Below are positions 22,846 through 59,456 of a stretch of DNA of 64,000 nucleotides, piece by piece. The stretch covers positions 41,409,572 to 41,473,571 of the forward strand of contig CP154954.1 in NCBI GenBank assembly GCA_039621445.1. The letters are read 5' to 3'. The notes under the pieces are model-generated. The model had not been told where the DNA came from. It saw only the letters and a program-made list of their open reading frames with translations, and did not search any database. The translations under genes and the position numbers were made by a program. The number at the start of each line of letters is the position of its first letter. Positions within the stretch are counted from its first letter, which is position 1. Origin of the DNA: Euglena gracilis. Taxonomy: Eukaryota.

Positions 22846-22950
22846 CTAAAACCTATTTCGTCTGGGCCCGCACGCCTGTCTTGAAAATTCATTCGACCGA
22901 TGCACCTGGCTTGAGTTTTGGCCGGTTTTGTCGTTTTTTCAAGAAAACGT

Positions 22951-23202: not shown

Positions 23203-23252
23203 GCTCTTTGATGATGGTGATATGTTCTTCTTGTCCTCAGTTTTTGTTCTTA

Positions 23253-24270: not shown

Positions 24271-24313
24271 CAACGCAAGGTCACTTTCAAACGCAAGGTC
24301 ACTTCACTTTGGT

Positions 24314-26341: not shown

Positions 26342-27993
26342 CGGTAGACTGGGGGGGGGGGGTAGTGGGTAGTCGGCCGACTAGTCGGCCGACTACCCAA
26401 TTGGTCCACCGACTAGGCCTAGTCGGTAGCTAGTCGGCGAGACAGGGGGGGGGTAGTGGGTAGTCGGCCAACTAGTCGGCCGACTACCCACTCTAATGTA
26501 CTAACGGGTCAAAACCGCCGACTTTTAAGCCCCCCCCCCCCATGAACAAAATCCAATGGAAACTAGTCGGTGGCTAGTCGGCGGTCATAAAAATGGTCTG
26601 TGGCGGGCCCAAATCACCCGGAAATGGTCCGGATGGGTCCAAATAAGTGTCTTACGCCTAAATAAACACCCCCAGATGGAAATCTTTGGTCAGTGGGGGG
26701 TCGGTGGGCCCTTGATGGGGGTCCGGAGGGGTAAAAAACCAATGATGAAAAAGGGATTACATTAAAATCCTTTAGAAATGCAATCTGCAATCTGCGTTCT
26801 GCATCACGAGAGGCAGAAAACTCCCCCCTCCACCCCAATCCGAGACTCAAATAACAAAATCCCTTCTGTGTTGGCAACATACCACCTCCCCCCCCAACAT
26901 ACCAACCCCCCTCCCTCCCCCCTCATTGACCGTGGGACCTCTCCACGGGACCCCCCTTTTGGTCAATTAGGGGGGGGGTTCAATTAGGGGGGGTCACCGT
27001 AAATTTGTGGGGGGGTACCATCAATTAGGGGGTGCTTCAGCACGGAATCCCCCGGGTAGTCAATTACTTTGGCATAGGCGGGGGGGGGCTCCGCCCCCCC
27101 CGCACCCCCCCCCTCAAATAACAAAATCCCTTCTGTGTTGGCAACATACTCCGGGGTAAGTCGTTTTTGTGGCTCACTTTGGCATAGGCGGGGAGGGCTC
27201 CGCCCCCCCCCGCACCCCCCCCTCAAATAACAAAATCCCTTCTGTGTTGGCAACATACTCGGGGGCTAAGTCGTTTTTGTGGCTCACTTTGGCATAGGCG
27301 GGGGGGGCTCCGCCCCCCCCCCGCACCCCCCCCCCCTCAAATAACAAAATCCCTTCTGTGTTGGCAACATACTCGGGGGCTAAGTCGTTTTTGTGGCTCA
27401 CTTTGGCATAGGCGGGGGGGGCTCCGCCCCCCCCGCACCCCCCCCCCTCAAATAACAAAATCCCTTCTGTGTTGGCAACATACTCGGGGGCTAAGTCGTT
27501 TTTGTGGCTTACTTTGGCATAGGCGGGGGGGGCTCCGCCCCCCCCGCCCACCCCCCCTCAAATAACAAAATCCCTTCTATGTTGGCAATAGACTTGGAGG
27601 GATAAGACCCTTTTTTTGTGCAAATTTTGACTTATATTGAAAATTCAATGGGGAGAGGTGTACTTTTGTCAAAAGTGGCCCAAAATGGACATTTTCCCCC
27701 AATTTTTTTGCATATTCACCCCCGATTGGGGGGTTCTGGAGCCATTTGGGTGGGTATTGAACGGCGTTGAGGTGATTTAGACAAAAATTTTTTCCCAGGG
27801 GGGGGCTTAAAAGTCGGCGGTTTTGACCCGTTAGTACATTAGAGTGGGTAGTCGGCCGACCAGTCGGCCGCCTACGCCATCCCCCCCCGCCGACTAGCTA
27901 CCGACCACTTAGTCGGCCGACTAGTCGGCCGACCAATTGGGTAGTCGGCCGACTAGTCGGCCGACTACCCACTCCCCCCCCCCCAGTCTACCG
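26342..27993. mobile_element. Non-autonomous element with ~200-bp TIRs rich in the AGTCGGCCGACT palindrome and an internal ~120-bp tandem array
   Basis: 26342-26540 is inverted at ~27797-27993; 4-5 units containing CTCAAATAACAAAATCCCTTCTGTGTTGGCAAC at 27065-27590; no TSD seen. Confidence 0.8.
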
Positions 27994-34774: not shown

Positions 34775-35436
<662 letters not shown>

Positions 35437-35587
35437 ATGGATGTCCCGGCTCCATGAAGGCACTTACCTTACATGAGCCTGGTAATGCCGTTTCGGCATT
35501 ACATCCGTTCCAGCCGCCAATAATCATGGCGGGAGTCCAAGGGATCTTCCACAAGGACCATCTGGAATTGTGGTGGTGGTGGCCTAT

Positions 35588-38500
35588 CTACGAGCCAGGT
35601 TTCTGGCGATTCGTATTCGAAATCAGGTGCCACCCAGTCCCGAACCCATCCTTCGGGGACTGTGTGCTTGGTTGCACTCGCTCTTTCCGCGAGGAACCAT
35701 TGCAGCTTCTCCCAGAATTTCCTGGGCAGAGTGCTGGCCAGATGAAGTAGTTCATCCTTGGGTGATTGGCTGACACCTGCGGGGCATTCCCCGGGTGGAA
35801 GTCAATCGGCATGTGATAGGCGCATTCCGCCCGGACTGTATGGGGTCGTAATACGGCCCCAAGCCAGTCTTTCCAGGTCATCCCGTGTTTTTCGGGTGGC
35901 CATTGTGGCAAGCACCAGCGACCGTTTCGGTCCTGGTTTTGGAACAGGCGGAAAAGTATCTTTTCCCTGTCTGCTGTCTCCCAGAGGTAAGGTAATCTTA
36001 CCCCTGCCTCCTCAGCAGCGAGGCGTATCGCCCCACTGTCGATCTGCCACCCACGGGCCATTCCCGTGTGGCGGTAGTCGTCGAGCTTGAGGTTGGCATA
36101 CTTGAAAAAGTCCTTGAACTTTTTGTTCAAGGTGGAGTATTCCTCCAGTGGCTTCTCGGCACTTGGCACGATTGTGCGTACTGCGCCTTCCGCAGTGTGC
36201 CAGAAGGTACCTCGAAGGCAGTTGACGCAGAGAACTGGTACATTCGTACCGTCTCGGTCTGTGTAGCTGAAATTGTGCTTGTGGGTCCAACTGTCCACGC
36301 ACTTGGCGCATACCAAGGCGGCACAGTTAGGGATGTATACATCCTTGTGGAACGATTTCCGATCCACAGGGTTGCACACATGGACGAGGGGTAATCCCAG
36401 GTCAAGTGCACTGTTGTACATCTTGTGGCATACAGTGCAAAGCCACACAAAACGGTTTTCCGTTGTTTTGTCGATGAGGAATTCCTCACCGAAGAATTGG
36501 GCCAAAACACGGGGGGATCTGGAATTGTAATAATTCCAGGTCACATTCTGATCAAAGGACCATTTCCGTCCCTGACAGAACAGTGGCTCAATCCACCGGT
36601 TAAGGCATTGCTGTGTCCTCAATTTATGTGCAATCATCATGTACCTGTTTTTCAGGTCATGAATGTCAGGGTCATCCTGATTGATCGCGTTCCAGTCGAG
36701 GACAACTTCGTCTTCTGAAGGTGTCTCGGCTGTCGAGGCGCGGGATTTTCCCTGCCCCTTTGTCGGAGGTTTCGGCTGTGAGGTTTTCCCATAGCCGGAT
36801 GACGTGACATGCGTGAATCCTTGTCCCGAGGTTAATCCCCGAGAAGAGGATGCAGCACTCTGGCCGCCAGCACCACCACCGCCTTTCGGTGGGGGCTGAT
36901 CACCAGATTTCGGTGTGGGTTTGCAAGGTGTGGCGCCCGGTTTACTTTTCGCCGGGGCCTTCGGGCTTCCGGTTTCCGGAGTCTCCGAGGGTCGGCGTCT
37001 CGTTTGCTTGCCCACGTGCGTGGTGACGCTTGGGACGGGGGTCTTTTCCCCGACGCCGAACGTCGATGACCTTCAGCAGGGGTTTCCCGAGCTGATGGTC
37101 GTCCTACACGCTCCTTCGCGGCTCCCGAAGGTTTCCCAGGGGTAGCCGTGGGGGATGGTGTTGGTGTAGGCCTAGCCTGTGCACTTCGCGCTGGCTGAGC
37201 CTGTGGTGGAGGCATGGACGCCCGCTCGGCCTGTTTTTCAGGCGCCGGTGTCCGTGTGCCTTGACGCTTCTCTGCCGTGACTGTGGCTGTACCATGAGAT
37301 ACGGGTTCATCCCGTGCCTCCGGTGGTACCGCCGGTGTCGATACAGGTTCATCCTGTACTGACACGGCTGGTGTTGTCTCCACAGTCATTGCCGTCTGTT
37401 CGCCTTCCGTCCGTGTCGCTTCCGACACTGGCGGTGGCGCTGCCGTTGGGGACGGTCCCTACTCCACCATGGCTGCAGTGTCAGCTGTGTCTTCCGTCAG
37501 CTGGGCAGTTTCCGCCGCAGCTGTGGAAGAACTGGCCGCAGTGCCACGTGGAGTGACTACTGCGATCAGTGACCGTAAACCACCGAGTACGCGTCCGCCC
37601 AGCGAGGTGCGTCTCTCCTCACCTGAAGTGGGCTCCTCGGCTGGCTCCTCTGTTAACGGGGTTTCCCCGGAAACAGGGAGCTTGAGGCGTAATACCTCAG
37701 GCGTGTGGGGTACCGTTTCCGGCGGGTTTTCCCGCGGAGGGGTTGGTACACCCGCTGTACCCAGTGAGGCTGGTGATAGAGGGACAGGTGTCATTTCACC
37801 TGCTTGTGATCCTGGGTGTTGGGCGGTTTCTGCCACAGTATCCAGCATCACGACGGATGGGCTACGTGTTTCCCGTGCCGGAGGTTCCGCTGGCTGAGGT
37901 TGATCCTCGGCCATTGGGACCACTTCCTCCTCCTCCTCCTCCGCTTCCGGAGAGAATTCGGCTGCGTGTAGCTGTGCTGCAGAACGCGGGTCTTTCCCGC
38001 TCCTGTAGCACCCTTGTGCGTTTGACAGGCGGAAAAAGCTAATACTTTCACTCCTGTCAGAGTTGGGGTATGGGGGTAGGCCACGTCGCTCTCCCCCAGC
38101 TTTCGGGTGGAGGCTGTGGTTGATCATCGTCGATCAAGCAAAGGTCTTCCCACTGCCGTCGACAATGGTCAGTCACGCCAAACTCTCCTGTTTCTTCCAG
38201 GAATGCTGGCAGTGGCAACGCGTAACGAGGGACTTCCCCTTCGTGCGCCGCGAAAAACATCTGAAAATCCTCCCATATCAGGATATTCCCGAATTGGGTA
38301 TCCAGGTGTTCCTGGAGACCGATTTCGGCCTCTTCCCAGTCTGGTCGCAGGTTCATCCTGCGCTGGTCTGGGTCATTGGGTCTGGCGTTCACCTCCATAT
38401 ATCCCCGAGGCAACCACTTTCTGTGGATTTCCACATCGGCGGTCATATATTCCAGGAAATATATGTAGACCTCCAGGACGTAGGTAATCCACGCCCTGTG

Positions 38501-40940
38501 CCAGTACTGCTGCAGCAGAAATATTTTCTGCCGGTGCTGTTTCAGCACCTTTCGGTCTTGCGTTCCGATCTGGGGATTCCGGCACTGATGCAGGAGGAAT
38601 CTCCTGGTCGGCTGGCTGCCGGCATTCTCGGCAGACGGAGGCGGTTTTCCGCGTTCTCCGAAACCCCAGAAGTCAACGATGTGGACTTCCTTGCAAAACT
38701 GGCATTCCAGTTTGTACCGCTGGGGGTACGCGAGGTCCACGTCCAGTACCTTGAACAGCATGCCATACATGCTGTCCAAGAAGACTTGGAGGTTGTTCGT
38801 GAACATTACCGCAGCCTGCGCCTGGAGTTTCTCCGGCAGGGGGTAATACTTCCACTGGATTCCCAGTGCGCTGACTGAAAACATGTGGTTGAAGATTTCC
38901 TTCAACTGTGCGACGAACGTTTCGCCGTCTTCACAGGTATTCAGGCAATCGATATACGTCAGACCGTTTCGGTCGGTAAAAATGCCGAAATTCTGGCAGG
39001 GGTATCCCAACCAGAACCACAGTTCCCAGAAACCAGGCATCTGGTCCAGGACAACTTCATTCGAATGAGGGTATCCCTCGAACGCATGAAGTTCGGCACT
39101 GTAGAAAAAACGTTTGCAGTGATCGTTCATACGATTCTGCACCACTTCGAGCACCGCATCCGGTGGTCGGTGGATCACGTTGCCTGCCCTTGTGAACTTT
39201 TGGAGATCCTCGTCGATTTTCGGCCAGATCTCCTCCAGGTACTTGAACACTGAGGCAACGTCATAATCCTTCGTTTTCGAAGGTTCGGCGGCTTTCCCGC
39301 CCTTGCCTGCTGGGGCTCCGGCAGATTTTCCGCCTTTGCCTGGAGCTGGCCAGGCGGCTTTTCCGCCTTTGCCAGCTGAGGCTTTCCCACCTTTCTCCTT
39401 GCCTTTTCGTTTCCCCTTACCCTTGCCCTTTACCCTTCACCTTACCCTTTGTGTTAGACAGCCATTCAAAGGTCGCCCGGTATGGGTCAAAGTATTCCCA
39501 GTATTCTGGGTCTTCTGGTGTAAACACGGGGTAAGTCACGGATTCCGTGCTTGGTGTTCGAGCAAATTCCTGCTCAGCGTCACCACGATTCGAGTAAACC
39601 GGTGCGACTGGGGATGGTCGGGTTTCCCGACGTGCCCGTTCTGCCGTCACGTCTGGCGCTGGCGGAGCTTCCTCCTCAGCGTCGACGTGCATCGCCGCGG
39701 GCGGATTTTCCGACCTCGGCGAGCGGCGCTGTGGCTGCGGCGTCAGATTTTCCGGGCCGCGGTCACGCTTGCCGGCGGCAGAGCTTGTGGGCCGTGCTGG
39801 AGGCGCTTCCGCCACAGCAACGTCCTGCTGTCGCGCTGGTTGACTTGATCGTGATGGAGCTGGGACTCCTGTGAGAGCCGACACAGCAGCATCATACTGC
39901 TGGCGCTCTTCCCGTGTCATTTCCGCCCGGGCAGGGTATCCCTGGCCAGCGGAAACAGGGGGGCGACGTGCGATTTGTCGTTGGATCGTCACAGCATATT
40001 CATACTGTTGACGCTCCTCCTCAGTCTCAAACGGCCGGCCAGTCCACGGGTTAACGGGTTCATCCCGTACCGGGGGAACTGGTGCCGCACGAGGCGCTGC
40101 CGCGGCTTCCCGCGGACGAGCGCTTCGGGCAGAGTCAGACGTCGGGGGAGGATTTCCCTCCGCAGGACGTCGTGGGATAGGGTCAGGTATGGTTGGGTGG
40201 GGTTGAGGTGGATATACGTACTGATCCCGTGGCATTGGCGCCTCCTGGGGGTAATCCCCAGAGACGGTATACTGAGACACAGGCTCCTGCGCAGGATAAT
40301 CCCGCCGGGGCATGCGCTCAGGGGATCGAAAAATACTTTCTTTCACACGTGGGTGTTCACTCCGGACAGGTGCTTCCACTGTCTCTTCCTCGGGTAATCC
40401 GGGGGAGTGAGCACGAAAATGTGCAGTGTAAGTGCCAACTGGTGGTACCTGCCGTGCGACCTGTGGCGGGACTTCCACGCCCAGGTCACGCATGGTAATG
40501 TCTGCCGCGAATCCCGACGCGTCCGGGTCGGTGTAATACACCAGACCGGTCATCGTCGCCTGGGCGCACATACACCACAGGGCTGGAGGGGTATTCGCGA
40601 TGGTTAAAATTTTACGGCAGTGGTCATCCCACAATGCCTGCGTGAGGTGGTCTGGTGCCGGGTTTGCGCTCATACGCATAACCCGGTTCATCGTCTTCGC
40701 CGTGCGGTGGATCATCACACCCGCATACGGTGGGAGGCGACGAGAGCCTGATGGCTGAGATGGCCGCGCTTCCGCGGGCATCTGGGTCATCCTGCTACTG
40801 CTGCTGGCTTCAGGGTTTCCCTGAGCCGCAGTCCGTGCAGGTGGCTGCGTACCGTATCGGTACGCATACTGGTCAGGTTGAGGGTGAGTGGTGGGGTGGT
40901 AAGGCGGTCCTCCGCCTGGCTCCCTTCCACCGGGCAGCAT
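35588..40940 (-). pseudogene. Large unknown ORF (~1,780 codons) downstream of pol, split into five pieces
   Basis: ORFs 39417-40940, 38057-39250 (frame open up to ~39428), 37459-38127, 36832-37428 and 35588-37015 join through three frameshifts and one in-frame TAG; two Trp/Cys-rich globular regions with CxxC motifs. Confidence 0.7.
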
Positions 40941-41103
40941 GATACAGCCCGGGGTCGGTACGGTGGGATGTTGGGGTTGTTGGTTGTAAGGTGTGTGAGG
41001 GTAACCGCTTGAGTATTATTTGGTAAAATGTCTGCGGAAAGAAATAATGATAAGAATCAATGATAAAAAGAAAAAGAAAACAACATGGGTTTCCCATGCG
41101 TTC

Positions 41104-42420
41104 TCAAAAACTTGTCATGGAAACATTAATATTATGCTTCTTGTTCCACAGCTTCCAATCCTGTTGGACATACCCAACAAAACTGGTTGCTGGCTCCCAA
41201 GTGTCCTCCTCGGGCCCATACCCTCTCCAGCGGACCTTCCAAAGGTGCATACCTTTGTCGATTTTGTGATCGATAATTTTATCGACTACAAAGTCGTCCG
41301 TCTCAGGTAATCTGGAACGGGGTTTGAAGTGCAAACACGGGATGGGTTTCCCATCCGGTGGCGACAGGTATGGTTTGAAGTCGTCCATATGAACGTCCTC
41401 AACACCATTCGGTAATGCAACCTTGTAACGCCCGCTGGTACCTAGTCTTTCTAGGATTTCACAGGGGCCGAGCCAGAGGGGGTCCAGATTGGAAGACTGC
41501 ATGCGAGTGCGGCTATTCCGCACCCACACACGGTCACCGGGGCTATACACAGGTGACTTGAAATTCTGCCAAAACGGTTTCCGTTTGGTTGCATGAATAT
41601 CAGTGACGCGCTTCTGGACTGCAGAACGTAGATTTTCTACTTCCGCAAACCAGGTCTCGCAACTGACACTCGTTCGGGCGGGTCTCTCCGAAGGGACATC
41701 CCCTATGGCCGGAGGGTCCCGTCCGAAAACTAATTTATAAGGGGAGTGAGGTAAAACCAACCCTGGTAGGGTATTGATATAAAACAAAGACCATGGTAGA
41801 ACTGATATCCAGTTGCTGCGCGAGTCAGCCAGTGAAAGGCGAAGCATATTCACGACGGATTTCATGGCTGCCTCGGCTCTACCATTGCCTTTGGGTCGGT
41901 ATATAATGAAAAAATGTTGCTCGATTCCGAGTAAACCACACAAAGTGGTGAAAAACCTTGAAGAAATCAAATGGTCTTGATCACTCACGATTTCATTCGG
42001 TAAACCCATTAAGCAAATGCATTTCTCCAAAAATATAGTTGCCAAACTTTGGGCAGTCAACCCTGACTTCTGGCATGGAATGGCTACAATGTACCCACTC
42101 AGCCTGCAGACGACAACAAAAACGTAATCGTAAATTTTGTCGTCCGTTCCTTTGCACGGTTCTAATTCCAGAAAATCCATGCAGAGGGATGTAAAAATGT
42201 CAGGGGGTACGGGGAAAAAGTCCATCGTACCGGGGGGGGGGTACCTCTGCGGGGTTTTACAGCTTGACAAATTTGACACCGTTGCGCTATTCGCAAACAG
42301 CGTGAGTAAAGCTCTTTCTCGCTCAGGGTTGTGCAATACCTGCGGCCCACCAACGAAAGAAGTTTGGGGGCCCCAGGGTGACCATGGTTGTGATAACACA
42401 AAATCACATCATCAACCAGG
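41104..42420 (-). pseudogene. pol: pol: integrase (HHCC, DDE core, GPY/F-like motif) and C-terminal chromodomain
   Basis: HNHGHPG...CQIC; SLCMDFL, IVSDQD, NGRAE; WLGPCEI; FVVDKIIDHK...KVRWRGYGPEEDTWEP; frameshift in the G-run at 42232-42241. Confidence 0.95.
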
Positions 42421-42789
42421 TCCTGGGGAATACAATATTTGTAACCCGATTCATTGCGAAAAACCAACCGTAAAGGTGAAAGAGTGTAATTGTCCAGCAC
42501 TTCGCCATTACGAAGTCTGGTGACAATGGTGTCATACACCGGATCACGACTATAATCCCATTCGCGAAAGAACAGTGGGGAAGGGGACTCCGTGCGCGTA
42601 ATACGCCGGGGTCCGGACGTGCTTCCACGTCGGCGCCTTCCGCGCACTGGTGCGACCAGGAATAGTTGTGAAACGGGAAAAGAATCCAAAAGATTATCCG
42701 CAGCGTCGTTTCGACGTGCGTATTCGTCAGCTTCCTGACTTCCATGAAAAGTCGCGTCTCCCTCATCCGGGTTCCCAGGGTAATACCAA

Positions 42790-44100
42790 GGGGCCCGACT
42801 GAGCGGATCCGCTACTTTTTGTGTGTGACCAGGGGTATAAATAACCACAAGGTTGAATTGACTCAAGAACTCATGCCATCTGCATCGCCTTCCGACCGAT
42901 GACATGGCCTTGTTCAAATCCTCGGTGTACCAGTGTTGGAGACTCTCATGGTCGGTCTTGACGAGGATCTGGACGAGGCTGCTGGCTACCCAGCTTCGGA
43001 ATTTCTGGAGTATAAGCACGATTGCGTAGGTTTCCTTCTCGCGTATACTCCATTTGACTTGACCTTTTCCATCGTCGCCCTGTAACTTTCTGCTGAAGAA
43101 AGCCACAGGTCGGAGCTCATTCGCCGCATTATGCTGGCTAAGAACTCCGCCAACAGCGTAATCGCTGCTGTCGACTTCCAACACGTATGGTTTGTAGGGG
43201 TCCGCGATTTCGAGGACAACATTCTCCAAAAGCAAAACCTTGATTTTCTCAAGGGCCTCGCGCATTTGGTCATCCCAAATGACTTTGGTGTTGTCAACAG
43301 CCCGGTTTTTGAGCTGTTTGGTGAGGGGCACCGCGATTTTCGCGAAGTCCTTCATATAAATCGCGTAGTATTGGGCTAATCCCAAAAATCCTTTGAGGTG
43401 TGTAATCGTTTTGATTACCTCAGGGGTCCATTTCTTAATGGCTTCGAGTTTACTCGGAGCGGCTTTCCGCTGTCCATTGCTGAGGATGTGACCGCAAAAT
43501 TTTATGAGAATCCGAAACAAATGCATTTTCGCGCCTTTCGCGAAAAGCACATGTTTTTGAAAGGCGGCTAATACCGCGCAAACATGGTGGAAGTGTGTGA
43601 CGAGGATATGGCAAACGGTAAATCGCGTAGAACCCATTGTATCATGCGCTGAAACATGGCTGGGCCATTCTTAACACCCATGGGGAGTACCGTCCATTGG
43701 TACACACCCTTGGATGTCACGAATGCCGAGTATGGTTGTGAGTCAGGGTAGGGTGCAAGTGCATTTGGTGAAAACCGTCCTCCAGATCGAAAATTGACCA
43801 CAACCGGTTTTCCGATTGTTTGGTGATCAAATCCTCGATCAGGGGGAGCGGGAAGGGATCATCCCTTGTTTGGGAGTTCAGGTACCGGTAATCCAGCACC
43901 ATTCTCCATTTCTTCTGACCGGAGGGGTCTGGGGGTTTAGGAACAACAAATGCCTGGGATTTCCACTCGCTTTTCGAGGGTACAATCCACTTGCGCTGAA
44001 TAAGCTTCTCAATCATTTCATTGAGAGCTTGTTCGCGTTCTCCCGAACAACGAAAAAAATTCCGGTGCATTGGTTTGGCTCCATCCTTAAGCTCGATCTT
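42790..44100 (-). pseudogene. pol: pol: reverse transcriptase and RNase H
   Basis: KWRMVLDYRYLN, FDLEDGFHQ, LPMGVKNGPAMFQR, FLGLAQYY, VDSSDYAVGGVLSQ, EKETYAI, TDHESL, VADPLSR; 5-bp duplication frameshift at ~43750 and YxDD missing at ~43605. Confidence 0.95.
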
Positions 44101-44309
44101 ACAAACACCGAACGGACCGCGTATCGCGGGGTCGATGTCGCACGCGTATACTGGATTTTCCAGCACACCGTGAAATTCGCGGGTGATCCGCGAACAGAAT
44201 TCGGCTGACTTAGGATGCTGACCTGCACTCTCGATGACTGCGGAAACCACCAGGGTATCCCTGGGGCTACCGAGCTTCCTCGGCACCGCGAATTCGGACA
44301 TTCCGAATG

Positions 44310-44715
44310 CATCGAAGAAACATACGCGAAAAATGATTTCTTGCAAGGGTGGTAATATTTTACCACAAAAATCCTCAAAAATCGGTACATTAGTGGGTAA
44401 ATCCCACCAATAAAAACATACATACGATAGTTGGGTGAACCATTCCGCTTCCGGAATGATGGGTATGAGAATAACTCCACGGGCTTCATCCCGCAGAATT
44501 TTCTCAACCGCACATTCGATAAGTTTTGGGGGAGGGTGCATCCATAACACCGTATCACCCCAAAATTTATCAAATGCGTTGGAGTGTTGTGACCAATGAC
44601 GTGGCAAACGGGCATGTGCATTGGATGAAAAGGCATCGATTTCCAATGCCAAATCAAAAGAATCAGCCAATGTCGCGATTTTGGAAAACCATCGTTCCAA
44701 AATGCGATATTGACC
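44310..44715 (-). CDS. pol: Dam/DIRS-type N6-adenine DNA methyltransferase-like domain
   Basis: IDAFSSNAHARLPRHW...NAFDKFW...LWMHPPPKLI...VEKI...GVILIP...EWF follows the DxFA...DAF...W...[N/F]PP...K...ILIxP...WF motif order of DIRS/phage Dam-like MTases. Confidence 0.75.
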
Positions 44716-45519
44716 AAAATTGAAAGCATTCCATACGCGTTTCGCGTATTCATGCACCCGATTTCCGGGTTGGAGTGAAGAAACACAATGAATGGATCCA
44801 CAAACATGCGGGTTGTCTTCCACTACCTCAAGGGATAATCCCAAGGGAGTTTGGACAAGTTGGGGTTTTCCCCATTCCGCATCAAATTCATACCAAGTGT
44901 ACTCGGGATGGTGATTAGGCATGACGCTTTTCGCGTTTCCGAACAACGAGGCTAATCCGCGTTGTTGGAGAACTCGGTGTATCTCCGTGCACTGCGGGCT
45001 ACAACTAAGTGTATCCTGGGGTGTGGATTCCGCTTTCAGAATGGCGATTAGTGTCGGATTTTGAACTAAACATCCACAATCGAAATCCGATTGGGTGGAA
45101 ATTCTCCTGCAGTGCACACATTGGAAGGAAGTGTGTTGGTGTGACAGGTGTGCGTGTAAGTGGGTGTCGATGGCATTAGCCGGTGAGTCTTGTACAGGTG
45201 TGCCTGGATTCGGCACAACTGGTGGGAAACGGAGTGGTGGTGTAGCTGGGCGACTACTCGACACCGTAATTTCTTCAGGCCTTTGGGCTTTCGTCTTGTA
45301 ACCCAGTGAAACGGCGGGGGTACCGCTACTGGCTTGCCCTGCCTCATGTGGAACGCATGTTGGTGTGTCGTTGGGCAGGGGGGAGGCTTTCTCCGTACCC
45401 CGGGTGTGGAAAACGGTTGTTGGTGTGGTGGTCATCATGGCGGATGTCAACGGTGATGGTGGTTTGGGTGTCAATGAAGTGGTGGGTGCTGTGCGCAAAC
45501 CGTGGGAGTGGCAATCCAC

Positions 45520-46059
45520 AACCAATCGGTACTGGCGTAAAAATGGGTATCCCAAAATTACGTCAGACCCGTGAATTCCGGACTCGTAACCCCAAATATT
45601 GGTGAAATGTTGTAATTGTGGGGGTTGTGAGTGATGCTTCGGAATGATGGGCAAGAGTATCTCGAGGACACATCCCAAATCACCACCACACATGAGGGTG
45701 TTATCCGCGGTTGTAATTTTGATCGGTTTCTTGGCGCTTACCAAGAGCGGGGTCGGTATCAACCCCAACCGAAAGAGCAGTGCAATGCGACAACCAGTGT
45801 CAATGAGAATTTTAACTTTCGCGGAGAAATTTTGGATGCGGATTTCCGCTTGGACAAGTAATTCCATTGGTGGTACGCAAAGTGAAGGGTCTGGCGGAAA
45901 TACGTTTGCATGCCAGCTCTCCCATGAACCCTTTCCTACTTTGCTCAGCATTCCGAGCGGAAATGTGGAGTGGGGGGTAGGGGACCCGAAATAATTCCGG
46001 GTACTGACCGTGAAGGCGGATGGGCAGGGGGGGCAAGGTTGATCAGGTCTTACCTCCAT
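45520..46059 (-). CDS. pol: pol: aspartic protease region
   Basis: ILIDTGC active-site motif and a downstream DVILGYPFL. Confidence 0.9.
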
Positions 46060-46068
46060 CTGTTCATC

Positions 46069-46107
46069 AGCCCAGAGGTCCGTGCCCTCGGACCTCGGGC
46101 TCCCCTA
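46069..46107 (-). promoter_or_regulatory. Putative gag-pol stop-codon readthrough signal (UAG-GGG plus stem-loop)
   Basis: The gag TAG (46107-46105) is in frame with pol; AGCCCGAGGTCCG pairs with CGGACCTC(T)GGGCT starting 3 nt later. Confidence 0.7.
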
Positions 46108-47559
46108 CTCCAAGTCCGAACCGGCCGCATAGCCGGCAACGGACTTTTTGGTGGAATAGATGGAATTCAATGAGCGCACCGCCATTCGGGCCTCATTAAA
46201 TTCCCCGTCCGAGGTCTCATCCCCCTCCCTGCCCGAAGCCGGAGGGTCCTCCTCCAAACAAGATATCTTGAAACCGACCTTTTGCCGGTTGGAGGAGTAA
46301 CCACGGTCATCGCGGCGCTTACCGCGATTTCCGTAGCCGGGCCGGGGGGAACGAGATCTGGGACATTTGGATGCGTGGTGATCTTTGGAACCGCAAAGTG
46401 AACAACGGGATTTGTGGCGGGATTCCGCATAACGGGGGGAACGGTATTCCGTTCTTCCGTCGAACCGTCGTGGTGAACGGGTTTCCCGTCGACCATGACC
46501 GGTGTACCGGGGTTTCCCCGGTGACTCCCGCGAAGAGGATGATCCACTTCGCGAACGAGATCGTGAAGAGTCGCGATTGAAATCCCGTTTTCGGGTAGGG
46601 GGTCCAGGTGACCGACCGCGAGAAGGACGGGTTTCCCGACCATCACGCGATGGTGACTTGGGCCTACTACCGCTAAAGCGGTTCTCCGAAGAACGTGAAA
46701 CTCCCGATTGACGTGAAAACGCCGAGGAACCCGATCCCCGTGAGGAGGTCGAGCCCCTTGGGCTTCCAATACGCTTTCGCGCATCGGGATTCGGGCATTC
46801 CCGAGACATGTGACCAGATTTGTTGCACAAAAAGCACAGTTTATCCGTGCCTTGGTCCGAAGAACGCTGATTCCGCGTTTTCGATCCCGTGGTGGGTGAT
46901 CTTGGTGACATGGGTGATTTTTGCAACGCATTAACCGCACCCGCAGGGATTCCCGCGGTGGGATGCGTTTGGAAAGCGGACTGTATTTGTCCCAAAACTT
47001 GTGTGAGCTTGAGTTGCTTTGACACATAATTCCAACGTTGGGCAAGAGTCATCTCATGCCCTGCCAACTCCTCGCGATGGATATCCTTCACGAGGGATGG
47101 TGTGAAATGCAACAAAACCGCATCGAATTGTTCGCGCATTTGCTTCTCGCTAAGTTCATCAACTTCGGAAGCAAGTGCTAACCATTTGGCATACCAAAGG
47201 TCAATGGATTTCCATTTGCGATCCGATGGCGCGAATTGTCGCCATTTCTTCTCCAGGGTAATCCTGGTGACCAAACTTGAGTTAGTTGAAGCGTATTGCT
47301 CAACCAGGTTATCGAATGATACACCATTACGTAGCACCAAATTGCGTGCGCGTTCTCGCTCCTCCCTCGGTAGGCAATCGATAAATTCCATCTTGACTAC
47401 CTCGGGATTCGGGTCTTGGGTGGGTCCCTTTAGTGCCCAGTAATACTCCCAGTCCGGAAAAAATTGTCTCCATGTGGTTCGCTGACGTCTTGTCTTGGTT
47501 CGCCTTCGTTCTAGACTCTGTTCCTGTCTTCTGGGTTGTCGAAGGTCAAATTTTTCGAA
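46105..47559 (-). CDS. gag: Gag with two CCHC zinc knuckles and an Arg/Ser-rich nucleocapsid region (true start unclear)
   Basis: CFLCNKSGHMSREC and CSLCGSKDHHASKC; the frame stays open upstream of the 47391 ATG (WRQFFPDWEYYW) to 47559. Confidence 0.9.
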   Translation of the reverse strand, partial: FEKFDLRQPRRQEQSLERRRTKTRRQRTTWRQFFPDWEYYWALKGPTQDPNPEVVKMEFIDCLPREERERARNLVLRNGVSFDNLVEQYASTNSSLVTRITLEKKWRQFAPSDRKWKSIDLWYAKWLALASEVDELSEKQMREQFDAVLLHFTPSLVKDIHREELAGHEMTLAQRWNYVSKQLKLTQVLGQIQSAFQTHPTAGIPAGAVNALQKSPMSPRSPTTGSKTRNQRSSDQGTDKLCFLCNKSGHMSRECPNPDARKRIGSPRGSTSSRGSGSSAFSRQSGVSRSSENRFSGSRPKSPSRDGRETRPSRGRSPGPPTRKRDFNRDSSRSRSRSGSSSSRESPGKPRYTGHGRRETRSPRRFDGRTEYRSPRYAESRHKSRCSLCGSKDHHASKCPRSRSPRPGYGNRGKRRDDRGYSSNRQKVGFKISCLEEDPPASGREGDETSDGEFNEARMAVRSLNSIYSTKKSVAGYAAGSDLE

Positions 47560-50056
47560 TCAACAAACTTCGGCGAAAAAGGCACTGAGCAGCAACGCCT
47601 TTCCCAGCGCCTCAAAACAATCCAAGCAACACCGCCGGCTCACAAGGGAAAAGTGCGGAGCCCGAGGCGTGTGTCCCTCCCTCCCTTGTCGGTTTTTCCT
47701 CGAGGGAGTGCGGCAATTGGTGGGCTTCCCCGGAAAAGGGGGGGGGGTCCTCCGGTCTGGATGGGTGGTAAGACCCTGGCCCTTAAAAAAAGGTGCATGT
47801 TGCTGCCTTTCCTAGCTCAAGTTCTTAAGAGGGTTCGTAAAGGGATTGCAATGACGAAATCGCAAGAAAGCAAACAGCCAGTGGTGCACATAAATGGTTC
47901 AAGGAAACTTGGGTAAGAATTTCCCCACACGGGATTCCTCTGTAACATAAACAAACACACTCAGGCACAAATGTGTGTTGTGAGTTTTGTGCATGCATGT
48001 GGGGTTGCGTGGGTGTGTGCAGCGCGCGCATATAAGGCGTGCATATGAGAGTGCTTCCATGAATGCGTGCATATATGTGCGTTTATGTGTGCTGGTTTTG
48101 TTGTTGTTTTTTGTGTTCTCTGATGACTGCTGGAATAACTTCAATTTATGTTGCGTCATCATGTCAAGGCGGCAGAGCGGAGGGTGGATGGATGGATGGG
48201 TGGGCAGAGGTTATCAGGAGAAGCAAAGAATATGAGGACAAATGACACACCATGCAGACAGCGGCAGGGGCCATGTGCACAATCTGGACAAATATGGACA
48301 AGCTGTGGCCACACATCGAGCCGCTGCCCCGAAAAAATAATAGGAAGACTGAAGCGGCTGGCAGCGGCACAGCGGGCAAATGAACAGACACCATTTGTGG
48401 TGGGTGAGAGTGAAGGGCATGGTCAACTGACGGACAGCAGCTCTCACCTCCAGGCGGGGGTTTCTTCATGTTGCCACTGAGGTCTCTCTGTGGGTCCTGG
48501 AAAGAACCAGGCAAATATCTACGAGAACCTCTGGGCTGCTGCCGCAATACCCTAGTGCGTTGGTATGTGGCTGGAAACTGTTTTTTTGGGGCAAGTTGGG
48601 ATCAGTTTATGACAAAGAACGGTAGAAAATGCACACCAATTATGGCAGATAATGCCCCCAAAATTGCCCTAAAACGGCCCACTCGACCACTCCTTCCTGT
48701 AAATCAAATTCACACACCAATTCATACTTTTTTTTTATTATACCAAAAATAGCGAAAAATGGCCCCAAAAAGGGAGGAAAGGCCCCAAAACAGATTCAGA
48801 TGGCCCAAACTTGACCATGCAGTCGAAACGTGCGGGAATGGGCAATTATACTGCGCCAAACTCCTGCAGAACCTCGAAATATGCGCTAAATATGCGAAAT
48901 ATGCACAAATATGCGATTCTTGGACAAAAAAAGTGAAATATGCACTAAATGTGCGAAATATGCGCAAAATATGCACTCTGCATATTCCCTCCCCCCTGTC
49001 TGATGGGCTACTGGTATCCTAATCTGCACAGGCGCAGGCACAGCCACCTTACAGGGGACCCGAGTGTCCCCGCAGCCAAGCCATCGCACCCATCAGCCGC
49101 CCATAGGGGCCGGAGCCCTGCCTTGTCAGCAGGGCTGTCCAGGGAGTCCTGGTCGGGGGTCGACCCCCCCCAGAAGGTGTGGATTAGACAACCCTCCCTC
49201 CCAAATAACTTTGCAGTGTCCTAAAGTTTTGTGTGCCTGAAGAACTTTGCAGGGGGGAAAGCGTAAAAAGATCGGTCCAAATAACTTTGCCCCCCTCCCT
49301 TTTCAAGGAAAAACCGTGAAAAATGATGCATCTTTTTGGGAAATCAGGAGGTGGCAAGGACAAAAAATCATCTGAAATGCCATAATAATCTATTATTAGA
49401 TGAATATAAATATTAAATAATATCACAAATATTAGTGAAACAAATTTCTTTTAAGAAGCGTGGTGAATCAATCCATCAATGGTTTTGGGTACTGCCCAAA
49501 TAAATTTGCAGGGGATTGGGGCCAAAAAGATCGGTCCTAACGTTGCAGGGGGCAAAATTATTTGGGGGGGGGTTACCACCGAGGGTTCCTGGTTCCCGGT
49601 CAGCCCTGCTTGTTGGGGATGGGGCGGAGGCTGGCCTGGCCAATGGTTCTGCCGGCGCCATTTCCGCAGATGATGCCCTGAGGCAAGACGGGTGCATGGC
49701 CTACACCGCGGCAGCCCCAGTGCAACGTCCAGACTTCTTTTTTTATCAACCCCTGGTGGGAGTGCCTTGTGCCGTGGGGTGCCTGTCCATAGCAGGCAAA
49801 CCGTCCCAAGAGTGGTCAGTTTTGGGCTCGGCTGCCTGCCGACCCAGACAAATTATCCTTGTGGGCCATTTTCGCGCCCCCAGCACATTGGCGCTGGGGG
49901 TGGAAGGGTGTGCTACAGCAGCCCCCGACCCCTCCTGCCTGCATCCACCCTCCGGGGGGGGGGTGCGAACTTCCTGATAAAAAGCCCAGCAACAACCTTC
50001 TCGGTGGGAGACACAAAGAAAATGGGCCAGCCGGCCAGCGGCAGCACGGGGCGCAC

Positions 50057-50230
50057 CGCTGCGGGGGCGGCAGCGGCGGGCGGTCGCCGGCGAACCGCGG
50101 GGGGAACGACGTGGCCCCGTCGAAGATGCAGAGCCGGCGCGGGCCCTCTGCCTCCGGGGGCGAGGGAGGGGCGGGGGGTGGGGGGAGGGGGGCGGTGGGC
50201 GACGGCTCTGCCCGGCCGGGGGGCGGACCC
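50057..50230 (-). CDS. FDGA-repeat protein exon (174 nt, phase 2-2)
   Basis: CCACAG acceptor, GTGCGC donor; encodes RRLCIFDGATSFPPRF. Confidence 0.8.
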
Positions 50231-50724
50231 CTGTGGAGGATGGGACGGGCGGTGGGAGGGGGGGGGGGGGGGGGGGGGGCTGGGGTTGAAATGGGAGGTG
50301 TCAGAGAGGGCCATGTGTGATGTGCACGTTTGTGGATAGGGTTCAACACTTGGGGCAACTCTGGTGCGAAGCAACAGAGGCAGAAACATCTGCAGAAAGA
50401 CATTTGAGTTGGATGAAAACAAAATGCGAATTCCTGTGGTTTTCTAGAATGATTTCTCAAGGGGATATCAGCTTTTAGGTTTGAAAATTATTTTTCTTTT
50501 GCTCATCCAATCTCCTCGATTTCAACTTTCTAAAAATTTGATCTTTTCTTCAAATATGCCTTGATGCAAAAAAAAAACTGCCAGATGAAATAGAACCACA
50601 TGGTCACATGACACCTGTGCCCAAAGGCATTGCCATTATATATTACCACAAATCCTGAGTGCAAAATAAAAAAATGCGTTATGAACTTGTGGGTCCAGAG
50701 ATGCGCAAATGGACAGGCCACGCA

Positions 50725-54474: not shown

Positions 54475-54804
54475 CTGACGGGGGAGGAGAGGGGCGACCG
54501 AGGCCAGGGCCCATGAGCCCATTTTATTTTTCACAACGTGCAGGGGCTGCCCGCAGCACAGGCTGGAGAAGCAGTGTGGAATGCGGCCCTGGTTGGGGCG
54601 GGTGGGATGGTGGGGCCACTGCCGGAGGGGAAGGGGGGCGGCCGGCGGGACCCTCGGCGGACCCCCTGAGTCGGAGCAGACGCATGTTGCCGGACCGTCT
54701 GGATTGTCGTCGACGGTACTGTCAGACAATGCGTGTGCCATGGATTGGAAAGAACCGGAAACAGGCAGGCACGCCGGGCAAGCCAGAGGCTGCACGGGGC
54801 GCAC

Positions 54805-54978
54805 CGCTGCGGGGGCGGCAGTGGCGGGCGGTCGCCGGCGAACCGCGGGGGGAACGACGTGGCCCCGTCGAAGATACAGAGCCGGCGCGGGCCCTCTGCC
54901 TCTGGGGGCGAGGGAGGGGCGGGGTGTGGGGGGAGGGGGGCGGTGGGCGACGGCTCTGCCCGGCCGGGGGGTGGACCC
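54805..54978 (-). CDS. FDGA-repeat protein exon (174 nt, phase 2-2)
   Basis: Near-identical to 50057-50230, with AG/GT ends. Confidence 0.8.
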
Positions 54979-57317
54979 CTGTGGAGGATGGGATGGGCGG
55001 GGGGGGGGGGTGATGGGAGGCAGAAAGGGAGATCAGAGAAGGGGTTACTGTCACTGTCACTGTCGCAGAAACAACACGCAACGCAACAAGGCACGGCTGA
55101 ACTTCCAAAAACTCACAGGAAGAGGGATTGTCATCTTGAACTCTGCTCAAGGCGGGGGGGGGGGCAGGCCGGCCTCGAAAACAATCGCTAAAATGTGCAA
55201 AAATGTGCAAAAATGCGCATTTTGGTGAAAAAATGCACAAAGTTGTGCAAAATTGTGCAAAATGTGTGGGTGAGAGAAATGAAAATCATAAAAATACAAA
55301 ACCAAAAACATGCAAAAATGGCTCCAAACTCAACAGAAATTAAATGGAATTGTGCACTTACTATACTTTATACTGGAACAATTTTGGAACTCTCTCCAAA
55401 GAAAAAACACAGGGTTTACTCCCAAACTGGTGAAGGGGAGACCAAAGCATTTCTTTTGTTTTATTTGAGCATATTTTGCGATCAGCAGTTTTCAAAAATT
55501 AGAAAAACCATCTTTTCTGCTTTTTTTGGGTTAAAAATGCATGAAATAAGACTTGCACCTTTTGTTTGTTTATATTTATATGTTTGCATGTTTTTGAGGG
55601 TCTACATTACGCCCCCCCCCCCCCCCCGAAACGACTCCTAATTTGAGGTTTGACCTCCAAATTTGGATTCTGAAATTCGCCCACGACTTATTTACACTTC
55701 AATCTTTTTGCCATCCCCATTGCCCGACCCTGGGAGAGTGGGATGGCATGGCAGTTCCTTTCTGTCTAGTCTAGTCTGTCAACCAACAGCAAGAGGGGCA
55801 TCTCACTCCTCTACAAAAGTAGGCAATTCCATAGCAGGGGGAAATCTCATCCAGTGTTGAATTTTGAAATCCAAGTTGTTCCATAATTATGTGAGTTATT
55901 GCTCCAAGGGGTATGGGATTTCATGGAACTCTGCCAAAAATTCTCATCAGAGCAAATCCTTGTCACAGGCCCCACGGGAAATTTTTGTTCTCGAGAATAT
56001 GCCAGGGTCCCTGGTAAGCCAACCTGTTGTTAAACGAAATTTTCAGGGTCCCAGGCGTCGACCGGTCAGCTGACAGTCTTCCTGGGGTTGGGGGAGGAGA
56101 AACTTCCGGAAATGGCATGCATCTGTCCTTGAAGGGGGGGGGACGGCTTTTTTGCGTTCTTTTTTGCATTTTTTTTTATTTTGGCAAGATTTATGCTTTT
56201 GTGTGTGTCCTTCTGTTTTTTTTTTGCACCCATTTTACCCTTACGCCAAAATTTTTGTCATTTTTGTCATTTTTCCATTTTTGGTCAACAAATTGCAACA
56301 TTTTATGCAAAGCGAAAATTTTCCTCACTGTATGTGAAGAATTTTTAAATATTTCGCACTTTTTCCACATTTAACACACTGGGAAGACCCAAAATTCCTG
56401 AGATACAACAAAACCTTTTTTCACAGCACCGTTTCATGATTTTGACATTACACTTTTTCATGATACTTGCTATTCTGACTCTTCCGTGAAATTTTGGGGG
56501 AAACTCAAAAAGTCAAAAAATAAGCACACAAAAAAAACCAATTGGTTGGATTTTTCAAAAAAAATCAACAAAACAACAAACTTGAAGAATGCAAAATGAA
56601 ACAGATATTCTATGAACTTGAAACAACAAACATAAAAAAATAATCACAAAATACAAAAACATGCTTGCGGGTTAAAAAACTAAGTTGCGTTAAAAACCCG
56701 CCAGAAGGAAAAAAAATAAAAAGAAAAGAAAGCAGAAAGAAAAGAAAGACTGCAATTCTCTTGGAAGAACTACTTCTGAATTGAAAACACACATTTGTCC
56801 TCCTCTCTCCCTTGTTCTCGCTTTTGAGGGAAAAAAACCCTCAATTTTGGATGCATTTGAATTGGGGCATTCTAATTCTTTAATGCATGGGTAAACTGTG
56901 GGCCCTGGTCGGCCCTGGTTGGCAAATGGTCGGCCGCAGGTGGGGGTCAGCATATGTCACGACCGTACAATACACTTTGAAACACATTTGCCCACTTTTC
57001 TTACTTTTACCCATTTACCCAATTTCGACCTCTTTTGCCCGTTTTTTTTGGGGGGGGGGCAGCTTTTTGGCCAATTTTAGCCATTTAAGCCAATTTTGGG
57101 TGCTCTATTTTTTCTTGGGCCACTTTGTGCACCATTGGCAACGTTTAGGCAACTTTTGGTCCTTTTGGCCAATTTGGCATTTTTGATGGCTTCTGTGCTT
57201 TTTTGCCCACTTTTGGCCACTTTTGGCCACTTTTACCGACTTTTGGCCTTATGGCCACTTCGGCCACTTTCAGGCTGCTTTTCCTGCTTTTACCACTTTT
57301 GGACACTTCGTTGCCAC

Positions 57318-57668: not shown

Positions 57669-59088
57669 GTTGCCACTTTTTTGCTGCTTTTTTTGACTGC
57701 TTTTGGCCACCTTTTGCTGCTTTGGCCACTTTTGTCTCTTTTGCCTCTTTTGCACACCTTTTACCATTTTTTTTTTACCCACCTTTGCCACCTTTAGGCC
57801 ACTTTGGGCTTCTTTTTGTTGTGTTTGAAGTCAAAAAAGCAGCAACAAGTGGCCACAAATCAACAAAAGTGCCAAAAGCAATCGAAAGCAGTGACTGAAT
57901 AATGACCAAACATCAGGAAATGGGTCAAAACAACAGCAAAAAACGAACAAGATTTGGCAAGGGTGGCCAAGAGCGGTCAAAAGACAGCAAAAAGTGGCCA
58001 GAAGTCGGCACAAAAAAAAACAGTCAAAAGCAACAAAAAATGATAAAATGGCCTAAAAGCGGCCAAGATGGTAAAAATGGCCAAAAGTGAGCAAAGGAGC
58101 ACAGGGCTGTACGGGAAGGCCTGGTGGGGGGGGGTCGACCCCCCCACCACAGCATTTTCACAAAAATTTTGGGTCGAAAATTGGTGCTCCGGGAAATACG
58201 GGAGGAGCTGGTGGGGGGTGGGGGTGGTCGACTCCCCCCACCCACCACACAGGGGTTGGGGTGGGGTGGTCGACCCCTCCCAACCACCACCCTGGCTGTT
58301 TGGCCGATTCCCGCACTGCCCTGGCCCAAAGCTGGCCAAAAGCAGTCAACAGCAGCAAAGGGTGGCCAGACGAAGCCAGAAATGGAACATGACAGGCCAA
58401 GCAGGTACAACTGGGTAAGACTTCCGTGTTTCCCAAATACTGCCGCTGCGGCTGACAAACTGTGAAGTCGGCCCTGGTCGCCCCTGGTCGGAACCCCACT
58501 GATGGTGGCCTTGAAAATGACCCAGCCTGGGTCGCACCTGGTCAGCCCTGGTCAGCCCTGGTCGGCTGTAGGTGCCTGGTGGTCAACAAAAACTGATAAA
58601 AGGATGGAAATAAACAAAGTTGAAAGACAGAAGAATTTTTGTTACAAATTATACTTCATGTTAGCAAAACTCTTCCTCCTCGTTTAGACTTTGTGGGGGA
58701 AAAAACCCTCTGGGATCTTGTGCACCAACCCATAGAGGACACAAAGAAAATTGTGAGGCACAAATAAACTGACAAATATGCAAATAATGATAAAACCCAA
58801 AAAAATACTCAAAAAAGCGAAAAGGCATGAAAGACAGCGAGCAAATAGGCGAATGTCTCTGAGGCGCAGCATCGAAAGAAAAACTTCCGTGGTTTCGGCC
58901 AAAAGAGGGCCGGGGGTGGGTCTGGAGTCCCCATACGACTTCCCCCCCCGAGGGTGCTCTGGACCCCACAGGCGACCTACCTCAAAACCGAAGGCTTCCC
59001 ATTCATCCCTGTCCACCCCACAAGGGAACAAGGAGAACCGCAGCAAAGAGAGATGGGCCAGCCGGCCAGCGGCACTATTGGGGCGTAC

Positions 59089-59262
59089 CGCTGCGGGGGC
59101 GGCGGCGGCGGGCGGTCGCTGGCAAACCGCGGGGGGAACGACGTGGCCCCGTCGAAGATGCAGAGCCGGCGTGGGCCGTCCGCCTCCGGGGGCGAGGGAG
59201 GGGCGGGGGGTGGGGGGAGGGGGGCGGCGGGCGACGGCTCCGCCCGGCCGGGGGGCGGACCC
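59089..59262 (-). CDS. FDGA-repeat protein exon (174 nt, phase 2-2)
   Basis: Third copy of the 174-nt exon; CCACAG acceptor, GTACGC donor. Confidence 0.8.
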
Positions 59263-59456
59263 CTGTGGAGGAAGGGGCGGGCGCGGGTGGGGGGCGGGGG
59301 GGGGGTGCCTGTGGTTGGCTGTCCTGGGCCATAGCAGAGCACGTTATCTGCCCAATGTATCCGCCAGCAAGGCTTGAGACCCGCCACCAGGCGTGGGGGT
59401 GGCGGGCCGCTGGGTGCACTGCTGACCCACGCGATGTGTTGCTGACCCCGGCGCAC

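Follow-up and report, generated by a model that had tools for sequence, protein, structure and literature searches.

Does a long terminal repeat (LTR)-class retrotransposon of Euglena gracilis encode an adenine methyltransferase within its Pol polyprotein and, if so, does this domain write N6-methyladenine (6mA)? The question is raised by a Ty3/gypsy-type chromovirus that lies on the minus strand of a 64,000-nucleotide stretch of contig CP154954.1 (hereafter, the window), in which a first-pass annotation made from the sequence letters had noticed an adenine-methyltransferase-like domain inside pol. We find that this domain is, by sequence comparison, a member of the Dam (PF05869) family, that it is a fixed part of Pol in this family of elements, located between the protease (PR) and the reverse transcriptase (RT), and that in the clade including the window copy, its motif IV departs from the form found in canonical adenine-N6 methyltransferases. 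The explanation we favor, with confidence that only modestly exceeds an even balance, combines this family identity and this placement in Pol with a role in binding or recruiting, as opposed to canonical 6mA writing.

A Dam-like domain in the PR-RT interval of Pol

The element is a Ty3/gypsy-type chromovirus (Metaviridae) with a DDE integrase and a chromodomain, encoded on the minus strand throughout, and the order of the Pfam domains confirms the first-pass assignment to this group. Along the minus strand, PR, RT, RNase H and the DDE integrase follow one another, colinear with the polyprotein of a sibling element (P0157; 1208 amino acids (aa), the closest intact relative). No match to Phage_integrase, that is, to the tyrosine recombinase that is characteristic of DIRS retrotransposons, appears in the Pfam scan of the element. 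The parts of Pol are given below, with residue numbers that refer, unless indicated otherwise, to the translation (P0002) of the stop-free pol frame of 795 codons (43717-46104, minus strand).

45505-45852, minus strand: region of the aspartic protease; its active-site motif, LIDTGC, occupies 45790-45807 (residues 100-105)
45070-45126, minus strand: Cys motif FQCxHCRRISTQxDFDCGC in the insert between PR and RT, ~110 residues upstream of the methyltransferase-like domain
44299-44769, minus strand: Dam/DIRS-MT-like domain with a predicted minimal Rossmann methyltransferase fold (residues ~446-602)
44527-44538, minus strand: motif IV position, HPPP in place of NPP[F/Y] (residues 523-526), right after the predicted strand beta-4
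43281-44139, minus strand: RT, with two frame breaks (Pfam RVT_1, first match from residue 722)
42855-43277, minus strand: RNase H (Pfam RT_RNaseH_2, E=2.4e-24; RT_RNaseH, E=1.7e-23)
41893-42431, minus strand: integrase, with one frame break at ~42234-42252
42249-42431, minus strand: H2C2 zinc domain of the integrase (Pfam Integrase_H2C2, E=2.2e-6)
41893-42186, minus strand: DDE core of the integrase (Pfam rve, E=1.6e-9)
41383-41538, minus strand: C-terminal SH3 domain of the integrase (Pfam SH3_Tf2-1, E=6.3e-6)
41185-41292, minus strand: chromodomain (Pfam Chromo, E=2e-10; P0005 residues 373-408), following rve and SH3_Tf2-1

The protease region can be aligned to xLxDTGC blocks found in seven relatives; the Pfam scan of the window copy detects no protease family at E<=0.1. 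From PR to RT, the 795-codon frame spans ~500 residues, in agreement with the in-frame insert of ~470 aa that had been noted originally, and the minus-strand translation of 44310-44715 reproduces exactly the peptide quoted in the first-pass annotation from the distal part of this insert (...IDAFSSNAHARLPRHWSQHSNAFDKFWGDTVLWMHPPPKLIECAVEKILRDEARGVILIPIIPEAEWF...).

A phmmer search of 1.84 billion representative proteins with residues 400-680 as the query returned 356 matches at E<=1e-3, 104 at E<=1e-10 and 13 at E<=1e-30, the best of them reaching 1e-65; a word-index search by region gave P0157 as the sole match among 161 candidates, which the exhaustive phmmer search shows to be a limit of the index. 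Pfam Dam (PF05869) matches the window sequence with 19.3 bits in the context of the polyprotein (E 9.3e-4) and with 22.6 bits for the domain alone (E=9.1e-5), the alignment covering profile positions 22-105 of 169. Among the relatives in the alignment of the domain (A1), 33 of 44 match PF05869 at E<=1e-3, with Dam as the sole methyltransferase family among the matches. When 19 relatives that match the window domain at E values down to 1e-33 were scanned with Pfam, 18 matched Dam at E<=0.01, and 10 of the 19 scored above the curated cut-off. Because the relatives match Dam, the homology is upheld notwithstanding the score of the window copy, which falls below that cut-off, and the insert domain is homologous to PF05869 and hence to the "MT" domain of DIRS elements. 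A profile search of the PDB sequences with alignment A1 gave no chain at E<=10. An atlas search with the domain, taken as a lead only, yielded eukaryotic clusters with scores of 0.91-0.93 and one cluster scoring 0.85, in which 11% of the members carry PF05869.

In the AlphaFold2 (AF2) model computed from alignment A1 (predicted local distance difference test score (pLDDT) 89.4, predicted template modeling score (pTM) 0.82), strands and helices alternate, and HPPP immediately follows a strand, which is the place of motif IV in class I methyltransferases; the distal part of the insert is thereby predicted to be a minimal class I Rossmann methyltransferase fold of ~150 aa. A search of the predicted viral structures in BFVD with the model gave 23 matches at E<=1e-3, headed by phage DNA N-6-adenine methyltransferases of 130-250 aa (E 2e-9; query TM-score (TMq) 0.61). 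The six matches at E<=1e-3 in a Foldseek search of the PDB are all PCIF1/CAPAM (best E 5e-5), and VIA-align likewise ranks PCIF1 first (Z 10.6), followed by METTL5 (8.8), KsgA (8.7) and M.BseCI (8.0), with T4 Dam (7.8), M.TaqI (7.5) and E. coli Dam (7.5) in the lower rows and KsgA/DIMT1 among the group at 7.5-8.8. The first-pass annotation had allowed that there might be no Rossmann-fold methyltransferase match at all; because the sequence, the model and the fold searches (AF2, Foldseek, VIA-align and BFVD) point to a methyltransferase, this possibility falls away, and the recognition of a Dam/DIRS-MT-like domain is borne out by PF05869 in the relatives, by the modeled fold and by the structural matches to phage Dam and PCIF1. 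We also lean, with some reserve, toward the view that the domain descends from the MT domain carried by DIRS retrotransposons, which is itself phage-Dam-like (PF05869), as part of the joint best explanation.

The domain recurs widely among the relatives of the element. Of the 42 proteins that match the RT-RNase H-integrase part of the window at E<=1e-30 and are 880-2510 aa long, 28 carry the domain, 13 lack it and one starts downstream of it; for several of these proteins, PF05869 is present in precomputed annotation together with rve or Chromo. Dam and RVT_1 were both matched in eight of the scanned proteins, with Dam located 230-270 residues upstream of RT in seven of the eight, and a protease match lies upstream of Dam in three relatives, with weak RVP matches in P0029 and P0048. 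Far from being a local insertion, the domain is fixed and conserved in the family. The other early reservation, that the segment could be a one-off insertion, is thus removed by the 356 representative proteins and by the 28 domain-carrying relatives out of 42, and the statement that the domain is placed differently than in DIRS holds, its position between PR and RT being common to the siblings. Because the Dam domain shares a polyprotein with RT and the DDE integrase, and recurs in siblings, the element is a "DAM-LTR" as defined in a 2026 preprint (Fernandez-Moreno et al., 22 May 2026; bioRxiv 10.64898/2026.05.21.726589), namely, a DAM domain on an LTR-class retrotransposon that recurs in sibling elements.

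The eight closest polyproteins share three alignable blocks with the window, namely, PR, the Cys motif and the Dam-like domain, which are connected by unalignable linkers. Between the window copy and P0157, the domain aligns without gaps and is 75.9% identical (110 of 145 residues), and the N-terminus of RT is identical in 125 of 142 positions, whereas the linkers that flank the domain are 23-49% identical and gapped. Many columns of the domain are invariant across 15 family members, and, taken together, these patterns indicate that it is under constraint at the protein level. The Cys motif, CxxCxR...D(F/Y)DCGC, has its C, C, R, D and C invariant in 15 of the 15 aligned sequences and may constitute a small module for zinc binding, associated with the captured domain. 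In a second AF2 model, of the Cys motif together with the domain, the motif forms short hairpins (pLDDT ~70-74) followed by a disordered linker to the domain, and confident packing between the two was not seen. Searches for related DNA loci found none in metagenome contigs, with the window domain and P0157 as queries, or in viral contigs, with P0157 as the query.

Motif IV and the role of the domain

In canonical N6-adenine methyltransferases, the catalytic roles of motif IV are established, with hydrogen bonding by the first residue and stacking by the aromatic fourth residue, and methyltransferases lose most of their activity when either of these residues is changed. The window domain has HPPP where the canonical pattern is (D/N)PP(Y/F/W). 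Among the aligned domain stretches, the first position of the motif is Asn in 79, His in 23 and Cys in 9 of 117; the two prolines that follow are present in 103 and 108 of 118, and the fourth position is Phe in 61 of 118. The nine closest family members divide into five with His and four with Asn, and none of the nine has an aromatic fourth residue, this position being occupied by P, L, I, L, A, L, A, S and I.

The alternation of His and Asn was mapped on a tree of the domain that includes the 82 more complete rows and was computed with the first column of motif IV excluded. On this tree, His requires 7 parsimony changes, at least 2 of which are forced by well-supported branches; a set of 11 rows, all with His, lies within a clade with support of 99 in the Shimodaira-Hasegawa-like approximate likelihood ratio test (SH-aLRT), a Cys-bearing group has support of 96, and the window copy pairs with P0157 (support 96). 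The His-bearing rows retain W515, K535, G543 and P548 in 19 of 19 cases, and within the window copy's own family, three His-bearing members are polyproteins that run uninterrupted for 1662-1769 aa. Because close, intact relatives alternate between Asn and His while the domain is otherwise conserved, HPPP is a lineage trait, borne by elements that were active, and not decay of the present copy. In the clade that includes the window copy, motif IV is [N/H]PP with I, L, A, S or P in fourth place, and neither the canonical hydrogen-bonding residue nor the stacking residue is maintained.

The original annotation had called HPPP atypical and left activity uncertain: the motif is confirmed, and given that Asn and His alternate and that the nine closest members lack the aromatic residue, the doubt now falls specifically on a canonical 6mA-writer role. 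The same alternation, the same loss of the aromatic residue and the otherwise conserved domain lead us to infer that the role for which the domain is selected in the window clade is probably independent of canonical adenine-N6 methyl transfer. Since the domain is translated within Pol, it would be delivered together with RT, that is, carried into the particle beside it. As a pseudo-enzyme or a weakened enzyme, it would most likely bind a cofactor or nucleic acid, or recruit other factors, with replication intermediates of the element itself or its newly inserted copies as the putative targets; an efficient stand-alone 6mA writer would be a less likely role. A broader proposal, that the whole chromovirus clade retains a Dam-derived pseudo-methyltransferase, for example, one that binds the replication intermediate or recruits the host 6mA machinery, is put forward tentatively, as we rate it somewhat below even. 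If the pseudo-methyltransferase reading is true, the model of a "6mA writer" encoded by transposable elements (TEs) fails for at least part of the TEs that carry DAM domains (DAM-TEs), and the persistence of the domain in DIRS elements of hosts that have no 6mA is explained.

Several observations weigh against a domain that binds or recruits in place of writing. The window copy does not reach the curated PF05869 cut-off of 28.1 bits, and many of the relatives are metagenome gene calls, possibly including decayed copies. Of the 19 rows that bear His, most keep the putative cofactor-side residues (14 have D490, and 15 have D or N at position 509), and this conservation is equally compatible with a working enzyme and with a binder. 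Furthermore, His could in principle take the place of Asn as the hydrogen-bond partner, and we know of no test of such a replacement in motif IV. Finally, according to the preprint, 6mA is higher on DAM-LTR copies than on other LTR copies in two ichthyosporeans and in Euglena, and direct deposition of 6mA is one of the models considered there.

An active DNA adenine-N6 methyltransferase that marks the cDNA or the RNA:DNA intermediate, with insertions in permissive chromatin, alongside the chromodomain, would account for the fold and for the nearest structures, which are N6-adenine methyltransferases, as well as for the conservation of the PP core and of the D490 and N509-A-F511 positions and for the protein-level constraint. 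We nevertheless consider it unlikely: the motif is HPPP in the window and alternates between N and H with no aromatic residue among the nine closest members, no Gly-rich motif I is evident among the conserved columns, and when DAM domains of other elements were tested in Dam-deficient E. coli, they added no 6mA, as reported in the preprint. On these grounds, namely, the clade-specific [N/H]PP followed by a non-aromatic residue and the negative assay, the "6mA writer" role proposed in the first-pass annotation is not supported as written. It is also conceivable, but improbable, that the domain is an enzyme whose substrate has shifted, for example, to RNA adenosine (as in PCIF1, METTL5 and KsgA) or to another acceptor, in which case motif IV would reflect a new specificity. 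The solved structures at the top of the ranking, PCIF1, METTL5 and KsgA, with the Z values given above, are RNA adenine methyltransferases, the domain travels with a replication machinery that uses an RNA template, and RNA-DNA hybrid substrates are raised in the preprint; however, small phage DNA Dam proteins match best overall, and structural ranks among Rossmann methyltransferases are uninformative with regard to the substrate.

A functionless relic that is decaying in the window clade is very improbable. The canonical catalytic residues are indeed not kept and the present copy is dead, but decay is at odds with the ungapped identity to P0157 compared with the gapped linkers, with the many columns that are invariant across 15 members, with the retention of the signature residues in the His rows and with the presence of the domain in uninterrupted polyproteins of 1600-1800 aa. 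The suspicion that the methyltransferase likeness arose by chance or from the composition of a dead frame, which could have drawn on the low Pfam score of the window copy, is refuted, and we assign it next to no weight, given the 356 homologues, the 33 of 44 relatives with PF05869, the confident model and the methyltransferase matches in three structure searches.

Comparison with DAM-LTR, DIRS and other methyltransferases

Structurally, the window domain comes closest to the small phage DNA N-6-adenine methyltransferases of the PF05869 family (E 2e-9 to 1e-6, TMq 0.55-0.63), which superimpose on the model with a root mean square deviation (rmsd) of 2.4-3.2 Å over 130-155 columns in 7 of the top 11 rows. 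Unlike the window domain, these phage proteins stand alone; the window domain matches only the central half of the Pfam profile and has a non-canonical motif IV. The best match among solved structures is PCIF1/CAPAM (PDB 6irw and 6irx; Z 10.6, rmsd 2.7 Å over 127 residues), which differs in that it is a large host RNA enzyme with additional helical and WW domains and is only 11-13% identical to the window domain. The motif of PCIF1 is NPPF. METTL14 and MTA9-type proteins are non-catalytic MT-A70 partners in which the fold is kept under selection and the canonical residues of motif IV are lost. MT-A70 is a different family, so that the likeness of METTL14 and MTA9 to a retained pseudo-enzyme is by analogy alone, and a partner of the retrotransposon domain is not known.

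That the MT domain of DIRS elements is a relative of PF05869 is long established (PMC3783388). The window domain belongs to the same domain family and has the same motif order (DAF ... DAF ... W ... NPP-type ... K ... P ... W). The elements differ in that DIRS encode a tyrosine recombinase, have neither PR nor a DDE integrase, and carry MT after RT-RNase H, whereas in the window, the domain is located between PR and RT.

The accessible text of the preprint (bioRxiv 10.64898/2026.05.21.726589) describes DAM domains in Ty3/gypsy-like LTR elements, so that the novelty implied in the first-pass annotation was overstated, its thesis being essentially that of the preprint. As reported there, chromodomain-bearing LTR elements account for 30.9% of the DAM-TEs, at least four independent captures from DIRS gave rise to five named DAM-LTR lineages, the Asn-Pro-Pro triplet is present in almost all sampled DAMs, and DAM-carrying DIRS elements are common in lineages without 6mA. 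The window element is similar to the DAM-LTRs so described, in particular, to the "Chlorophyta DAM-chromovirus-like" lineage, in its Ty3/gypsy polyprotein, RT, DDE integrase, chromodomain and PF05869-like DAM, held to derive from DIRS, and in that the copy numbers of such elements are highly uneven and sometimes very large. Unlike almost all of the DAMs sampled there, with their Asn-Pro-Pro, the window family has His or Asn followed by the two prolines and a non-aromatic fourth residue.

The screen in the preprint used hmmsearch at E<=1e-5. The Dam scores of the window polyprotein (9.3e-4) and of four of the seven close relatives that were scanned (P0008, P0009, P0011 and P0014; 4.1e-5 to 4.2e-3) are worse than this threshold, and because of this, the window family may have been missed. 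Where the accessible text specifies the position of the domain, it places DAM between integrase and RT, in one lineage, and it gives no PR-DAM-RT position; the architecture and species data of the preprint may nonetheless already include the PR-DAM-RT form or the present host. Besides this preprint, a full-text literature search found no other relevant paper on DAM-LTR-type elements. The DAM-LTR class, only just described, ties retrotransposons to adenine methylation and to chromatin reading; what is new here is a very abundant family that keeps the domain but not its supposed catalytic motif, and this family offers a concrete test of whether such domains write 6mA or serve another step of retrotransposition.

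Two relatives have arrangements of their own. In P0147 (1905 aa, gypsy-type), Dam (residues 1209-1303, 49.2 bits) occupies a second position, after RNase H and before integrase. In P0198 (1366 aa), a relative in the RT-RNase H part, the precomputed annotation includes both PF00145 (C5 cytosine DNA methylase) and PF05869, a dual set of methylases that resembles the "EpiLTR" combination in the accessible part of the preprint.

The present copy, its family and the rest of the window

Outside the Pol domains, the element comprises a gag frame, and 3' of the chromodomain lies a series of long open frames that may be part of it.

46105-47559, minus strand: gag frame, 484 codons from stop to stop (translation)
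46795-46836 and 46363-46404, minus strand: two CCHC zinc knuckles of Gag (Pfam zf-CCHC, E=8.2e-7; the second, CX2CX4HX4C, recognized in the sequence)
46105-46107, minus strand: TAG, the terminal stop of gag, in the frame shared with pol
35588-41015, minus strand: consecutive long open frames of 532, 459, 224, 208 and 494 codons, ~5.4 kb in total

The gag frame lies directly upstream of pol, in the same frame, and the two are separated by the lone TAG at 46105-46107. Because gag and pol share one frame split by a single TAG, the sequence suggests that Pol is made by stop-codon read-through, not by frameshifting, unless the TAG is a mutation of the present copy.

A tblastn comparison with P0157 shows that the window copy shifts frame at three places, one near 43750 in RT (near 43745-43750), one at 43607 and one near 42234-42252; the deletion at 43607 removes a stretch equivalent to P0157 residues 659-678, which holds the YIDD motif of RT. 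Because of these three frame breaks, one of which deletes YIDD, the present copy is, as judged from its reading frames, inactive. The element belongs to a very high-copy family of Ty3/gypsy chromoviruses. In contigs from public sequencing runs, the summed contig depth is ~1e6 across 36000-47747, compared with ~230-390 in 47748-48815, so that a block that is strongly repeated in one organism stops near 47745; summed contig depth does not equal copy number and, being derived from contigs only, does not reveal the ends or levels of transcripts. Some of the other copies lack 5 nucleotides at 43745 and 2 nucleotides at 42233, which are two of the frame-break sites. By summed depth, only about one third or less of the DNA contigs lack these frame-breaking extra 5 and 2 nucleotides, and, with the unbroken form in the minority, the broken variant itself seems to be present in multiple copies. 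RNA-Seq contigs from a leaf-litter metatranscriptome, together with those of a run that was guessed to be RNA, cover the element including the methyltransferase-like domain, and one such contig (record 22) spans 44186-44812 with 6 differences, which gives a weak hint that members of the family are expressed.

The repeat search and self-blastn revealed no pair of direct repeats that would flank the 35.5-47.7 kb interval as LTRs, and clear LTR ends were not found when the termini were inspected by reading the sequence; the copy may have undergone truncation or rearrangement. The frames at 35588-41015 may be extra 3' genes of the element or may belong to a neighboring repeat. By summed contig depth, the block at 36000-41015 is repeated as strongly as pol. 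The 532-codon frame (P0006) has a single, weak Pfam match (2C_adapt, E=0.059), and the frames of 459, 224, 208 and 494 codons match no Pfam family at E<=0.01; some of the downstream translations include Cys- and Trp-rich parts that look globular (P0158 and P0159) along with Pro- and Lys-rich stretches, and the top score of P0158 in an atlas search (0.76, to DUF6604) is too low to use. Just downstream of the last of the long minus-strand frames (35588-37072) lie long (TA)n and (CT)n microsatellites (34830-35450), outside the interval from 36000 onward that the contig-depth mapping covered.

In the remainder of the window, six open reading frames (ORFs) outside the element match no Pfam family, and no Rfam family is matched; a single tRNA-His is present, and the remaining ORFs appear to be non-coding. 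The repeat search and self-blastn yielded just microsatellites, the satellite at 22.9-25.8 kb and unrelated short repeats. Tandem satellite arrays occupy 22946-25761 and 27066-27614, the self-matches at 24.3-25.8 kb being offset by multiples of 33 bp and those at 27.1-27.6 kb by ~110 bp. On the other side of the element, a repeat of ~230-260 bp is present in three copies (50014-50274, 54782-55010 and 59044-59305) that are 91-96% identical to each other and unrelated to the coding part of the element.

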